DNA of 64,000 nt from an uncultured Solirubrobacteraceae bacterium (GTDB lineage: Bacteria; Actinomycetota; Thermoleophilia; Solirubrobacterales; Solirubrobacteraceae): positions 1 through 64,000 of the forward strand of contig CAZPQW010000016.1 of the NCBI GenBank assembly GCA_964588985.1, given 5' to 3'. Positions 52,541 to 57,558 of the stretch are shown here, piece after piece. Numbering within the stretch: the stretch's first letter is position 1; each line of letters starts with the position of its first letter. The position numbers and the translations under genes are program-made. The notes beneath the pieces were generated by a model. The model had not been told where the DNA came from. It did not search any database and saw nothing but the letters and a program-made list of their open reading frames with translations.

Positions 52541-53587
52541 TCAGCCGGCGAGCGCCGCGTCGATCTTCCGCGCCAGCTCCCGCACGTCGACCCGCTCGCT
52601 CGCGCCACACGCGCGGACCGCCAGAATCAGACTGCCGCCCACCGGCGCCATCTCCACCTTCGCCACGCGCGCACCCGGCGCGCACGCGTGGATCGCACGG
52701 GTGAGCGGCTCCACGAACACGGGGCCAGCCTTGAACGCGCTGCCGATCAGTCCCACGGGGAACACCCCGTCGCCAGACGCTTCCTCGCCCGCCAGGCACG
52801 CCCGGCGGATGACCGCCGCGATCTGCTCGCCCAGCTCGCGTGCGCCCCGCTCGTACAGCGCGCGCGCCACCACGTCGCCACGCTCCGCGAGCTTCGCCGT
52901 CTCCGTCGCGAACGCCGCGATCTCGCCCTTGGTGAGCGGCTTGGAGTACACCAGGTGCGCCGCCGCCTCCACGCTCGGCGCGTCGAAGAACTCCATCGCC
53001 GCCTCGCTCAGCCCGGTCGGCGGGCCGGATGACTCGCGGTCGCGCAGCGCCGCCTTGATCGACTGCACACCCAGCCAGTAGCCCGAGCCCTCGTCGCCCA
53101 GCACGTGCCCCCAGCCGCCCGCGCGCCACGCGCGCCCGTCAGGCCCCACGCCGAACACGTTCGAGCCCGTGCCCGAGATCACCGCCACCCCCGGTCCGCC
53201 GCCCGTCGCCGTCGCCCACGCGCCCACCACGTCGTTCACCACGATCCACGCCTCGGTGCGCGCGGCACGCACGTGCCCCGCGATCGAGTCGGTGTTCGTG
53301 CCCGCCACCGCGATCACCGCCGTCGTCAGCTGCCCACCGTCTATCCCCGCGCTCCGCATCGCGCTGTCGGCCGCGCCCAGCAGCGCATCCACGGCCGCCC
53401 TCGCGCCGACCGCGTCCTCGTTGCTCGGACCGCCGTGGCCGATGTGCACCGACCCGCTGTCGAGGTCGAGCACCGCCGCGAGCGTCTTCGTCGCGCCGCC
53501 GTCGACCCCGAGCACGTAGCGCGCGCCCTCGCGGGTCTGGGGATGCGTCAGCGCCGGCGGAAGCTGTACGAGAGGATCGCGGCGCAT
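52541..53587 (-). CDS. N-acetylglucosamine kinase-like (BadF/BadG/BcrA/BcrD ATPase family)
   Basis: GVDGGATKT, ISGTGS, GGWGHVLGDEGSGY. Confidence 0.9.
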   Translation of the reverse strand: MRRDPLVQLPPALTHPQTREGARYVLGVDGGATKTLAAVLDLDSGSVHIGHGGPSNEDAVGARAAVDALLGAADSAMRSAGIDGGQLTTAVIAVAGTNTDSIAGHVRAARTEAWIVVNDVVGAWATATGGGPGVAVISGTGSNVFGVGPDGRAWRAGGWGHVLGDEGSGYWLGVQSIKAALRDRESSGPPTGLSEAAMEFFDAPSVEAAAHLVYSKPLTKGEIAAFATETAKLAERGDVVARALYERGARELGEQIAAVIRRACLAGEEASGDGVFPVGLIGSAFKAGPVFVEPLTRAIHACAPGARVAKVEMAPVGGSLILAVRACGASERVDVRELARKIDAALAG

Positions 53588-53676
53588 TGGCGCAGATCCT
53601 CCCAGGATTCACGGATGGGCACGCGCAGTCGGAAATCGCGCGCGCGTGGATTCAACCATCTAGGATCGAGCCCGCC

Positions 53677-54654
53677 ATGGACGCCGCCGCCATCTTTCCC
53701 TCCGCGCGGATGCGCGCGGGGATGTACGAGTCCTTCTACCTGCGCGCGGTCTCGCCCAGCGAGCCGGTGGGCGTGTGGATCCGCAACACCGTCCACAAGG
53801 CGCCCGGGCGCCCGCCGCAGGGCTCGGTGTGGTGCACCGTGTTCGACGCCCGCGCCGGCGCGCCCTTCATGCACAAGCACAGCACGCACCAGCTGAGCGT
53901 CCCCGCCGGCGGCTGGATCGCGATCGGCCCAGACACCAGCATGGGAGCCGGCCGTGCGCAGGGAAGCTGCGGCCCCGCACGCTGGTCGCTGACCTACTCG
54001 AGCGCTGAGCCCGAACTGCGCCACCTCTCCCCCGAGTGGCTCTACCGCATGCCGCTGCCGCGCACCAAGCTCACCAGCCCCGCGCCCGCCGCCGCGTTCG
54101 ACGGCGTGCTCGAGCTGGACGGACGCGACCCGATCGAGCTGAGCGGCTGGCGCGGCATGGTCGGCCACAACTGGGGCAGCGAGCACGCCGAGCGCTGGAT
54201 CTGGCTGCACGGGATCGACTTCGCCGACACGCCCGACGCGTGGCTCGACGTGGCCCTCGGCCGGCTGCTCATCGCCGGCCGCATGACCCCGTGGGTGGCC
54301 AACGGCGTGCTCAGCCTCGACGGCCGCCGCCACCGTCTCGGCGGCCTCGGCGCGCGCGGGCTGCGGGTGAGCGAGAGCGCCCAGGGAGCCGTGCTGGAGA
54401 TCCCCGGCGGGCACGGCCTGTCGCTGCGGGCGCGCGTGGACGTTCCGCCCGGGTCGGCCGCCGGCTGGCGTTACGCGGACCCCGACGGCGGCGAGCACGA
54501 CGTCGTCAACTGCTCCGTCGCCGCGCTCGAGCTGACCGTCGAGCGGGAGGGCGCCCGGTCCAGGACGCTGCGGACGGAGCAGGGCTGCGCGTATGAGTTG
54601 GGGATGCGCGAGCGCGACCACGGCGTCGCGATCGCCCCGTTCTCCGACGGCTGA
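53677..54654 (+). CDS. Hypothetical protein, possible tocopherol-cyclase/lipocalin-like fold
   Basis: YESFYL..GHNWGSEHAERWIW; Trp-rich beta pattern. Confidence 0.75.
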   Translation: MDAAAIFPSARMRAGMYESFYLRAVSPSEPVGVWIRNTVHKAPGRPPQGSVWCTVFDARAGAPFMHKHSTHQLSVPAGGWIAIGPDTSMGAGRAQGSCGPARWSLTYSSAEPELRHLSPEWLYRMPLPRTKLTSPAPAAAFDGVLELDGRDPIELSGWRGMVGHNWGSEHAERWIWLHGIDFADTPDAWLDVALGRLLIAGRMTPWVANGVLSLDGRRHRLGGLGARGLRVSESAQGAVLEIPGGHGLSLRARVDVPPGSAAGWRYADPDGGEHDVVNCSVAALELTVEREGARSRTLRTEQGCAYELGMRERDHGVAIAPFSDG

Positions 54655-54659
54655 CTCAG

Positions 54660-54877
54660 CTGAGATCCACCACTGCGACTGGGCCGGCGAGAAGTTACCG
54701 GCCCAGCCGTGTGGAGGGGTCTGAGGAGCCTTGAACCGGCCCCTCAGGAGGGGAGGAGAGAAACGTCATGTGGGAGTGCTCTGCCGGCTCACGGCGGATT
54801 GGCCTGGATGAGAGACCTCCGCCCAGTCCATCGGACCTACCGTCCCGACTCGCTGGTGAACGTGTTACCGACATTGC
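54660..54877 (-). ncRNA. Candidate structured small RNA (~215 nt)
   Basis: Minus-strand promoter upstream, several hairpins, CU-rich anti-SD tract, no convincing ORF. Confidence 0.5.
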
Positions 54878-54883
54878 TCAGTA

Positions 54884-54911
54884 AACATATCAAGAATATG
54901 GAGATCGTCAA
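54884..54911 (-). promoter_or_regulatory. Sigma-70 type promoter
   Basis: TTGACG-N16-TATGTT with extended TGn. Confidence 0.65.
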
Positions 54912-54961
54912 GGGGTGCCCGTAAAGATCTCCAAAGGCGTCGAGCGGCCGCCGCAGCGCTC

Positions 54962-56713
54962 ATGCCCAAGCTCGATCCGGCCGATCTGCCATATGCAGGG
55001 CATTCCACCATGCAAGAGCCGCAGATCACAACACCGCAGCCCGGGCCGACCGCCGACCCGACGCTCGACGGGCAGCGCCTCACGGTCGCGGCCGAAGCGC
55101 TGCTGCGCGAGCATCCCGACGCTTATGTGTGCGGGCTCGCCGCCAACGGGCTGATAGTTCCCGTGCCGCAGACCGTTGGCCTGTGGGGCCAGGGGCTGAT
55201 CGAGGGCCGGGCGCTGATCGATCACGTGGTGGCGGCCGATCGCATCACCGTCACCAGGCTGTGGGTGCGCATCCAGGAGGAGGGCGCCGCCTCGGCGAAG
55301 GTGCGGATGCTGCGCAAACCGACCAGCTGGGCGACGCTTCACTTCCTCGACCTGCGCGAAATCCACGGCGTGCTGCTCGGCATCGTGATCCCCAGCTCCG
55401 AGGAGGCCCAGGACGCCGGCGAGCTCGAGGAGCTGCCGTTCGCCGCGCCTCGCTTCTGCTCGCTGATGGAGGACGAGACGGCCAAAGTGCTCGACTGCGA
55501 CGACGCCTTCACGGAGATGTTCGGCTACACGCTGGAGGAGCTGCTCGGCGAGTCCGTGCTCGACCAGATCCACCCCGACGACCAGGGCCGCGCGGTGGAG
55601 GGCTGGCTGGCGGTCGTCTCCACCAACCGCGACCAGCAGACCCGCCTGCGCCGCAGGCGCAAGGACGGGACGTGGATGTGGGTCGACACGACGCTTCGCA
55701 ACTACCTCAACCAGCCCGGACGCAACCACGTGCTGGTGGAGATGATCGACATCTCCGCCGAGATGCAGGCCCACGAGGCGCTCCAGGAACGCGAGGAGCT
55801 GCTGCGGCGCCTGACGAACGCGATGCCCGTCGGGCTGCTGCACCTCGACGTGGAGCGCAGCGTCGTCTACCACAACGCCAGACTGCTGGACATCCTCTAC
55901 GGCTCGGACGCGAGCACACCCGAGCAGACCGTGGCCGAAGAGACGCCCGCAACCGGGAGCTCCAACGCGGACGCCGACACCGCGAGCACGCTGCTGCAGA
56001 CGCTGAGCGACGAGGGCAGGGCGGCCTTCGACGCGGCGCTCGCGGAAGTGCTCGGCGAGGGCGCCGATCGCGACGTCGAGGCCGACATCGTGCTGCCCAT
56101 GGGCGCGTGGCGACGCGCGCTCTTCAGCCTGCGTGCGCTGCTGCGCGCGAACGGCGAGGTGAGCGGCGCGATCACCTGCGTGCTCGACGTGACCGACAGC
56201 GCCCGCGCCCGCGAGGAGCTCGAGAAGCGCGCCACGTACGACACGCTCACGCTCTGCCGCAACCGCTCGTCGATCATCGCCGCCCTCGAGCACGAGCTCG
56301 AGCGCGAGGACGGCGCGCGCACGGGCGCTGTCTACGTCGACCTGGATCTCTTCAAGCCCGTCAACGACACCCTCGGGCACGCCGCCGGCGACGAGCTGCT
56401 GGCGCTCGCCGGCGAGCGCCTCAGGCTCGCGAGCCGCGACAGCGACGTCGTGGGGCGCCTCGGGGGCGACGAGTTCCTCGTCGTCCTGCGCGACGTCCCC
56501 GACACCGACACCGCCGTGCGCGTCGCCAACCGCATCAGCGAGGTGCTGTGCGGGACGTGCGAGCTCTCCTGCGGCAGCGTCGAGCTGCGCGCGAGCATCG
56601 GCGTCGCGTGCTCGGCCGACGAGACGATCACGGCCGAAGAGCTCGTCAAGCGCGCCGACGCCGCGATGTACGCGTCAAAGGACCAGGGCCGGTGCGCGCC
56701 CGTCCTCGCCTGA
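54962..56713 (+). CDS. PAS-domain diguanylate cyclase
   Basis: IHPDD PAS/PAC motifs; RDSD I-site; RLGGDEF; start may be 55010. Confidence 0.93.
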   Translation: MPKLDPADLPYAGHSTMQEPQITTPQPGPTADPTLDGQRLTVAAEALLREHPDAYVCGLAANGLIVPVPQTVGLWGQGLIEGRALIDHVVAADRITVTRLWVRIQEEGAASAKVRMLRKPTSWATLHFLDLREIHGVLLGIVIPSSEEAQDAGELEELPFAAPRFCSLMEDETAKVLDCDDAFTEMFGYTLEELLGESVLDQIHPDDQGRAVEGWLAVVSTNRDQQTRLRRRRKDGTWMWVDTTLRNYLNQPGRNHVLVEMIDISAEMQAHEALQEREELLRRLTNAMPVGLLHLDVERSVVYHNARLLDILYGSDASTPEQTVAEETPATGSSNADADTASTLLQTLSDEGRAAFDAALAEVLGEGADRDVEADIVLPMGAWRRALFSLRALLRANGEVSGAITCVLDVTDSARAREELEKRATYDTLTLCRNRSSIIAALEHELEREDGARTGAVYVDLDLFKPVNDTLGHAAGDELLALAGERLRLASRDSDVVGRLGGDEFLVVLRDVPDTDTAVRVANRISEVLCGTCELSCGSVELRASIGVACSADETITAEELVKRADAAMYASKDQGRCAPVLA

Positions 56714-56826: not shown

Positions 56827-57558
56827 CTATTCGAAGCCGAGGTTTCCCCCGATCAGTTCCTCGTGCAGCACACCCCTGTAGGAGCCGGTTTTGGCTTCGG
56901 GGTGTTTGAATTCCGAGCACTCGCCTTCTTCGAAGCTGAATTCCATGTTCTTGAATTCAGTCGAGATCTGCAGCTCCTTCTGGAAGCCGGTCGGGAACGC
57001 CTTGAGGTGCGTGCTCGCGACTTCTTCGTTCGAGAACAGAGCCGCCGAGTACTGTTCTTCGGGTTTGGCGATCGCCCTCATCGGCACCGTCTGAGCGGGC
57101 CAGCTGATCAGGCACTTGATGCCCGTGATTTTCAGTTCGGCCGCGCCGCTGCCGATTTCAACCGAGCCTTCTTCGCCTTCCGTGCCGACTTCGGCGGAGC
57201 CGTTGGCGTGGAAGCTGTATTCGACCGGCGCCAGGAACCTGGTCTTCAGCGTCGCTGGTTCCGCGCCGACTTTGATCGACGTCGTGCAGCCGTGGTATTT
57301 GGCCACGACCTTCAGCGTCGCGGACGCTTCTTCGGTCACGATCCCCTTCGTGCCCGCGCTTTCGCAGGTTGTGTGGATCGGTCCGAATTTGAACGCCTGC
57401 GGCCCGACGCTGCCGCCCTTGACCTTGCCCGGCGTCGCTTCGGAAATCGTCTTTTTCGCGATGCTGGCCGTAAAGGTGTGGGCCATCGCGGCGGTGGCGC
57501 TGAGCGCAACCGCGCACACGGCAGCCATCAGCCCGAGTGTGATCCTCACGCGTCTCAT
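56827..57558 (-). CDS. Secreted hypothetical protein (243 aa, paired Cys)
   Basis: Signal peptide ending AAMA; AGGAG SD. Confidence 0.85.
   Translation of the reverse strand: MRRVRITLGLMAAVCAVALSATAAMAHTFTASIAKKTISEATPGKVKGGSVGPQAFKFGPIHTTCESAGTKGIVTEEASATLKVVAKYHGCTTSIKVGAEPATLKTRFLAPVEYSFHANGSAEVGTEGEEGSVEIGSGAAELKITGIKCLISWPAQTVPMRAIAKPEEQYSAALFSNEEVASTHLKAFPTGFQKELQISTEFKNMEFSFEEGECSEFKHPEAKTGSYRGVLHEELIGGNLGFE

Follow-up and report, generated by a model that had tools for sequence, protein, structure and literature searches.

Whether a gene of its own lies between two protein-coding genes at positions 54655-54961 of contig CAZPQW010000016.1 is the question raised by this locus. The contig belongs to an uncultured Solirubrobacteraceae bacterium with a genome of 3.4 Mb and 68% GC, and its first 64,000 nucleotides (nt), analysed here as a whole, are called the window below. 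Two plus-strand genes flank the gap, a 355-amino-acid (aa) open reading frame (ORF) ending at 54654 and a PAS-GGDEF gene starting at 54962, and a preliminary description, drawn from the letters of the window, had placed between them a minus-strand promoter and a trans-acting small RNA (sRNA) that pairs with ribosome-binding sites. In this study, we provide evidence that the span 54911-54676 (minus strand) is very likely a stand-alone non-coding RNA gene, encoding an RNA of about 200 nt (209 nt in its predicted form). The fuller statement, that such a gene exists and that its RNA works by base pairing of the anti-Shine-Dalgarno type, is held with less assurance, although on balance we favour it. 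Among the readings which the preliminary description offered, the sRNA fares best.

The promoter, described as TTGACG-N16-TGnTATGTT and as firing into a gene-free gap, was found in place and so oriented (Table 1), and it is the sole sigma-70-like site in 54300-55300, where 50 shuffles gave an expectation of 0.0. Among 57 distinct homologous loci, 56 keep a TTGNNN hexamer 16 or 17 nt before a TANNNN -10, the 57th having been mis-parsed by the script; the -35 reads TTGACA in 35 and TTGACG in 11 of the 57, and, of the 56 promoters parsed, 54 have a 16-nt spacer and 54 have TG ahead of the -10. Conservation begins sharply, exactly at the -35 (CCTTGAC), and continues through the AT-rich spacer to about +12; upstream of CCTTGAC no conserved sequence was found among the homologous loci. 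The first predicted transcribed bases are GAGCAAUG, the counterpart of which in most homologues is GAACAUUG.

Downstream of the promoter, the minimum free energy (MFE) fold runs in the order hairpin, unpaired tract, hairpin. Both hairpins of the preliminary description, CUGAGGGGCC/GGCUCCUCAG and CUGGGCCGG/CCGGCCCAG, are readable in the sequence and present in this fold, and its two tracts, UUUCUCUCCUCCCCUCC and ACCCCUCCACA, are likewise readable and are left unpaired, the first of them belonging to a tract (motif 1) with an unpaired probability of about 0.7-0.9 or higher along its whole length in the full-length fold. Among distinct homologous loci, between 23 and 117 nt (median 74) separate the -10 from the conserved tract. 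The loop of the terminator hairpin is UAACUUCUCG in the window copy versus a C-rich CUCCCCUCG in the family (motif 3), and the 9 nt on the 3' side of this hairpin hold on average 3.9 T on the minus strand; a tail on the opposite strand would lie in the 9 nt that precede the stem, where A averages 1.6.

Table 1. Coordinates of the predicted sRNA gene, its parts and the neighbouring genes in the window
Feature	Positions	Strand	Basis or remark
-35 hexamer of the sRNA promoter, TTGACG	54906..54911	minus	site scan and homologue comparison
Extended -10, TGaTATGTT (family consensus TGATAAGGT), 16-nt spacer	54884..54892	minus	site scan
Predicted transcription start	54877..54879	minus	promoter geometry, 5-7 nt past the -10
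Structured 5' domain	54778..54876	minus	fully paired in the fold of the 209-nt RNA; sequence and length vary among homologues
Unpaired C/U-rich tract CUCCCACAUGACGUUUCUCUCCUCCCCUCC (motif 1), about 30 nt	54748..54777	minus	fold
Core of the motif 1 tract, GACGUUUCUCUCCUCC	54752-54767	minus	homologue comparison
Hairpin 2, CUGAGGGGCC / GGUUCAA / GGCUCCUCAG	54721..54747	minus	MFE fold and covariation
Unpaired linker ACCCCUCCACA (motif 2, CCUCC-like)	54710..54720	minus	sequence and fold
Terminator hairpin, GC-rich stem of 12-13 bp, arms CUGGGCCGG/CCGGCCCAG	54676..54709	minus	fold and alignment
PAS-GGDEF diguanylate cyclase gene, divergent	54962..56713	plus	Pfam GGDEF 1.4e-35, PAS_3 1.1e-18
Tocopherol-cyclase/AttH-like gene, convergent	53587..54654	plus	nearest Atlas clusters with PF14249
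BadF/BadG/BcrA/BcrD-type ATPase gene, co-oriented, further downstream	52541..53587	minus	Pfam PF01869 1.6e-28

Searching 61 related genomes at the DNA level recovered the module of hairpin and tract from three and flanking pieces from two more, and in the first alignment the promoter was conserved as well, but not the stretch between promoter and tract. A strict pattern (TTTCTCTCCTCC, 15-45 nt, CCCTCC) matched once each in 24 of 401 sampled genomes of one uncultured Solirubrobacteraceae genus, its reversed control matching in none; 22 of these matches are canonical copies, one is a variant and one is a chance match inside a coding sequence (in genome G216). With the covariance model R1, the bacterium's own genome yielded a single full-length copy; seven further copies came from 16 GGDEF-orthologue loci lacking the strict pattern and 16 more from 69 other genomes with a GGDEF orthologue, so that the RNA gene occurs in at least 45 of the 401 genomes, with one copy per genome. 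A repeated element was considered and rejected, the seed and the terminator core each occurring once in the own genome. A scan across prokaryotes with one genome per species gave 26 pattern matches, 23 of them in metagenome-assembled genomes of Solirubrobacteraceae; the three elsewhere (Streptomyces, Lachnospiraceae, Acidobacteriota) score at most 19.3 bits with R1 and are taken as chance. A metagenome scan added 37 contigs with the same layout, all at least 1.2 kb long. When R1 was run on 150 family genomes, other genera contributed just two weak matches, of 28.7 and 26.9 bits, which align mainly at the terminator, and a broader model, R2, had no match in 145 genomes of 41 other Solirubrobacteraceae genera; as judged by these searches, the RNA family is confined to one genus among the genomes covered.

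The two hairpins are supported by covariation, a check proposed in the preliminary description. Across 56 distinct sequences, 94.3% of cells form standard pairs versus 86.1% in shuffles, 112 cells are changed on both sides versus 29, and for each of five measures not one of 500 shuffles attains what was observed; as a control, moving the partner along by 1-3 columns lowers pairing to 32-49% of cells. In hairpin 2, 11 of 11 pairs show compensatory changes, and the terminator stem is paired in 98% of cells, with 7 of 13 pairs invariant and 4 showing compensatory changes. Since this alignment was fitted to the model and many of its members had been selected by pattern, the 16 copies found by the model only provide the cleaner test: compensatory changes occur at 19 of 26 pairs, including 12 of 13 in hairpin 2, and none of 500 shuffles matches the observed values on four of the five measures. 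These statistics come from shuffling and from related sequences of one genus. The arrangement is more than chance, since other genomes repeat the same succession of promoter, tracts and both hairpins, and with covariation.

The unpaired parts are conserved in another manner. The tract core GACGUUUCUCUCCUCC is identical in the 22 strict-pattern loci, themselves selected by that pattern; its letters drift in the 16 model-only copies (CGUCUCGCUCCUCC, CGUGUCUCACCUCC, CACAUCUCCCCCUCC and one deletion), 15 of which still have a pyrimidine tract containing CUCC. Variants of the CCUCC-like linker are present in most of these 16 copies (CCCUCC is at least 90% conserved in alignment A5), and a C-rich terminator loop in 15 of them, which is to say that two helices and three C-rich positions persist in divergent copies as the other letters drift. 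Motifs 1, 2 and 3 are each complementary to GGAGG-type sequences.

Three other loci bear on the make-up of the family. The variant copy (G383; L010/L058) shares the promoter of the family and matches the CCUGACGUUUCUCUCCUCC tract exactly, with a different 3' half, consisting of a hairpin around CCCCCGCCCUCCCC and then a different terminator, and has no cyclase orthologue nearby. A truncated remnant (L093 in G124), about 120 nt from the cyclase start, has lost promoter and tract by deletion; it scores 45 bits across model positions 51-93, with the linker, the terminator and the 3' arm of hairpin 2 preserved. In the own genome, a second locus of similar 3' design (C38:9671-9751, minus strand; L033 1501-1581) directly follows an ORF and shows an unpaired CCCGCCUCCUCCCAG tract, then a GC hairpin whose loop is CUCCCCCC, and the tail GUGUUUAA (R1 21.1 bits); the promoter scan found none there, and it may be a C-rich RNA derived from a 3' untranslated region or merely a terminator.

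What the RNA would do is suggested by its single-stranded parts. The locus combines its own promoter and terminator, a covarying structure without a conserved reading frame, and a conserved accessible seed, as stand-alone sRNA genes generally do. In the proposed mechanism, a strong sigma-70-type promoter with an extended -10 would drive an RNA that folds into a variable 5' domain, an unpaired pyrimidine tract (…GACGUUUCUCUCCUCCCCUCC), a hairpin conserved in structure only, an unpaired CCUCC motif and a terminator hairpin, the loop of which would present a third C-rich motif in most homologues. Its most likely action would be that of a trans-acting, chaperone-independent base-pairing regulator, the C-rich single-stranded motifs pairing with the G-rich Shine-Dalgarno regions of several mRNAs, by which translation initiation would be blocked. 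We infer pairing with ribosome-binding sites from composition, accessibility and analogy, mainly because all three motifs complement GGAGG-type sequences. Hfq was not found in the own genome.

The analogy is with several families of C-rich sRNAs, although the RNA belongs to no family known to Rfam. No Rfam family reaches its threshold: positions 54000-55600 gave no match at E up to 10 except a chance-level one to Pyrobac-1 (18.5 bits), and the matches of the majority-type homologue L124 are all far below threshold and all to sRNAs with C-rich motifs. Within the same phylum, Actinomycetota, the 6C (B11) RNA (RF01066) has C-rich single-stranded regions which, according to one study, bind multiple mRNAs, G-C pairing being sufficient without a chaperone (PMC6486639). 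It differs in having two hairpins with C-rich loops, an architecture other than the present one, and its model (47-bit threshold) had no match in the region (E up to 10) or in the own genome (E up to 1), with doubtful sensitivity, as the cut-off was reached in 0 control genomes. The RNA sX13 (RF02232, Xanthomonadaceae) is likewise short and has a gene of its own; its several C-rich motifs are reported to repress mRNAs bearing G-rich motifs near the start codon, and Hfq is not needed (PMC3771888). Its model scores 30.5 bits on L124 and 29.4 on L046 against a 50-bit threshold, aligning over the terminator and C-rich loop. The C-rich motifs of sX13 sit in three apical loops and the RNA comes from another phylum, whereas in the present actinomycetotal RNA two of three are unpaired between hairpins and one is in a loop. 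The alphaproteobacterial ar14/cuckoo RNAs (RF02344; CcsR, NfeR1), which like sX13 are known to target G-rich start regions by C-rich motifs, are described as having a repeated anti-Shine-Dalgarno-like CCUCCUCCC, each copy in the loop of one of two to four adjacent hairpins; the motif is constant, and the stems of the scaffold vary by compensatory mutation (PMC4615179). In the present family the majority form has UCUCCUCCC, but its main motif lies in a long unpaired tract and not, as every motif there, in a loop, and the ar14 model reaches 25.4 bits on L124 against a threshold of 58.8. The top sub-threshold match on L124 is BjrC80 (RF02354, Bradyrhizobiaceae; 30.8 bits), the alignment covering hairpin 2, the linker and the terminator with its C-rich loop; the score is far below the threshold of 80 and many aligned pairs are non-canonical. 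As far as sequence can tell, the RNA would resemble these C-rich families in its working and is a member of none.

Several observations weigh against pairing with ribosome-binding sites or against the gene as drawn. Target scans covered one genome, with 10,782 candidate start regions from crude start-site calls. RNAduplex energies of the 26-nt seed against these regions are close to those of the reversed seed (mean -16.7 vs -15.8; 1st percentile -27.4 vs -26.7), and sites for the 12-nt seed (at most one mismatch, G-U pairs allowed) number 1,488 genome-wide against 1,333-1,991 for seven reversed or shuffled control seeds, and 261 near starts against 183-280. No target thus stood above the control seeds in either the energy or the match-count scans of the own genome; 84 matches to the 17-nt complement with at most four mismatches included none that is compelling, and exact complements of at least 11 nt number 23 besides the locus itself, a few of them at likely start sites. 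In addition, transcription and the ends of the RNA are predicted, the window copy has a terminator loop that is not C-rich and a U-poor tail, the invariance of the tract is partly due to the selection of copies by pattern, and the homologues, all from one genus, are not independent, so that their shared neighbourhood may be mere inheritance. The terminator stem and the tract are also conserved in sequence beyond the need of pairing, for which a protein-binding site would be an equally possible explanation. Of the earlier claim of a trans-acting sRNA pairing with ribosome-binding sites, the independent minus-strand gene is strongly supported, by its conserved promoter, covarying hairpin, terminator, single copy and lack of a conserved ORF, and the targets do not rise above the controls.

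Conservation of stem and tract beyond pairing leads to a rival in which the minus-strand RNA is real and, instead of pairing with mRNAs, binds or sequesters a protein with a preference for single-stranded pyrimidine-rich sequence or for the invariant stem-loop of the terminator. The invariant pairs of the terminator, the conserved letters of loop and tract, and the want of an mRNA target exceeding the controls are what such a protein would explain. No candidate protein was identified, all three motifs complement GGAGG-type sequences as in known C-rich sRNAs, and the drift of tract letters in divergent copies, with the C/U-rich character kept, fits degenerate pairing better; we therefore regard protein binding as rather unlikely. 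Much less can be said for a small protein, which we consider scarcely credible. Both ORFs put forward as alternatives exist, a 59-aa leaderless one on the minus strand (54874-54695) and a 38-aa one on the plus strand (54768-54884), and GGAGGAGAGAAACGTC, resembling a ribosome-binding site, precedes the plus-strand ATG. This ATG is AGG or GTT in three of the four first-found homologues, however, and among 26 full-length homologues the ORF over the conserved motif lies in frame 0 or 2 in sense, three having none, and in frame 0, 1 or 2 in antisense, one having none. No reading frame is thus conserved on either strand; neither window ORF has a Pfam match, the stretch between promoter and tract is variable in length (23-117 nt), and what is conserved is base pairs, not codons. 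The other alternative on the plus strand, a GGA-rich RNA (GGAGGGG, GGAGGAGAG, loop CGAGGGGAG in homologues) titrating CsrA, is very unlikely for reasons of polarity. The own genome does encode two CsrA, FliW beside one of them and flagellin, and the complement of the conserved motifs has about four GGA, one in a hairpin loop in most homologues. The conserved promoter, however, faces the opposite way, the T-rich tail past the hairpin occurs on the minus strand only, the upstream side for a plus-strand transcript shows no conservation beyond the hairpin, and the gene on that side differs among loci. By comparison with RNAs of the CsrB/RsmZ kind, CsrA is present, but the GGA motifs run against the polarity of promoter and terminator. 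In FliW-type CsrA systems the antagonist is a protein, and no sponge RNA is known from them.

The neighbouring genes raise a further rival, a cis-acting one, in which the RNA is a 5' leader or attenuator of the ATPase gene or is antisense to the 3' end of the tocopherol-cyclase-like mRNA. In its favour, the ATPase gene follows downstream on the same strand at 20 of the 22 strict-pattern loci, starting about 40-60 nt past the terminator in 7 of those 20, and at 14 of the 16 model-found loci, and in the window 21 nt separate the tocopherol-cyclase-like stop codon from the foot of the terminator hairpin. Yet at 13 of the 22 loci, including the window, the convergent gene intervenes between RNA and ATPase gene and the RNA is still fully conserved; the 5' domain, where an aptamer would sit, is the variable part; no alternative antiterminator pairing was seen; the seed pairs weakly and inconsistently with the start region of the ATPase gene (-9.9 to -19.6 kcal/mol); and the RNA is kept without the tocopherol-cyclase-like gene at 9 of 22 and 4 of 16 loci, the latter gene accompanying it at 12 of these 16. 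A cis-acting role is accordingly improbable. The tocopherol-cyclase/AttH-like protein had no Pfam match; its nearest Atlas clusters are mostly from Actinomycetota, and the Atlas version starts at residue 31.

On the other side of the stand-alone sRNA gene, the divergent diguanylate cyclase of the preliminary description was confirmed as a PAS-GGDEF gene, the translation of which (RDSD...GGDEF) has an intact GGDEF motif and an intact RxxD site. An orthologue lies within 1.5 kb in the same arrangement at 21 of the 22 strict-pattern loci (at 1.9 kb at the 22nd) and at 8 of the 16 model-found loci. Cyclase orthologues occur in 124 of the 401 genomes, and among the 30 best-matching cyclase-orthologue loci the RNA is present in 21, a truncated remnant in 1 and nothing in 8; this mixture of presence and absence implies that the RNA has been gained or lost independently of its neighbours. 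The neighbourhood is weak evidence for a functional link, because all loci are within one genus and the arrangement may be inherited.

Two conserved sequences were observed at the starts of the neighbouring genes. GTGTCCAAGCGCCGTTTCAGCGCTCATG (window about 54935-54964) lies just ahead of the cyclase gene and takes in its start codon; among cyclase loci it shows conservation at the DNA level with or without the sRNA, and it contains no Shine-Dalgarno sequence; the window copy is more diverged, and the element may be a candidate promoter, leader or alternative start. The ATPase start region (window about 53588-53615, minus strand, and 18 other loci) has a conserved inverted repeat, AATCCTG(A/G)GAGGAT, over the ribosome-binding site, often with a second GATCCTAAC copy about 30 nt upstream, and this repeat could be an operator or a hairpin sequestering the ribosome-binding site.

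Individual mRNAs were considered as targets and rejected. For the GGDEF mRNA, the only duplexes obtained are long and rich in loops, and they involve G-rich coding sequence some 200 nt into the gene; the ATPase start region fared as described above. Flagellin would be an appealing target, with 11 of 12 seed bases paired at its start region, CAAGGAGAUGAACGC-AUG, but its duplex energy ranks 1,194 of 10,782, and the site is invariant both with the sRNA (28 of 28) and without it (10 of 10), showing no co-variation; the C-rich motifs upstream of flagellin are not conserved and fall within a sigma-28-like promoter, in its spacer. The flagellin 5' leader (C5 about 57205-57270, minus strand; L134; also L136-L162 and L166-L175) has a structure of its own, two hairpins each presenting GGA, GUCGAC-ACGGA-GUCGGC and CGUCAUC-AAGGA-GAUGAACG, the second over the ribosome-binding site, and CGUCAUCAAGGAGAUGAACG before the flagellin AUG is identical in all 38 loci examined. 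We take this leader to resemble a classical two-site CsrA operator, and the promoter upstream of it is presumably sigma-28-like. Elsewhere in the own genome, a flagellin-family (FlgL-like) gene, fliW and csrA stand in a row at C5:90264-91870, and the second csrA stands alone at C1:253513-253668. In a genus-wide sample, flagellin was found in 33 of 36 genomes with the cyclase orthologue versus 3 of 8 without, a hint, from a small sample of related genomes, that cyclase and sRNA may belong to the motile lineages of the genus.

A more ambitious reading would make the RNA the post-transcriptional arm of a motility and cyclic di-GMP (c-di-GMP) module specific to flagellated members of the genus, encoded back-to-back with an active PAS-GGDEF cyclase, its anti-GGA/anti-Shine-Dalgarno motifs competing or cooperating with CsrA at GGA leaders such as that of flagellin. 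The low rank of flagellin and a site equally invariant without the sRNA do not favour it, and we think it quite unlikely. If true, it would be the first case of an sRNA tied to a CsrA circuit of the FliW type, and Thermoleophilia would gain a first described regulatory RNA; in the literature searched (full text), no regulatory RNA was found described for Solirubrobacterales or Thermoleophilia.

Taken as a stand-alone sRNA gene that probably acts by base pairing, the locus is a previously undescribed, genus-restricted sRNA gene, and the mechanism proposed for it is not new. It would provide an independent case of a recurring design, that of C-rich, anti-Shine-Dalgarno-like sRNAs working without Hfq, alongside those of Xanthomonas, Alphaproteobacteria and Mycobacterium. 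Its restriction to one genus, with repeated gain and loss and one truncated remnant, makes it a usable case for the study of sRNA gene turnover. For Solirubrobacterales and Thermoleophilia, an abundant and almost uncultured soil lineage, it adds a well-supported sRNA gene with a defined promoter, a defined structure and a candidate seed.

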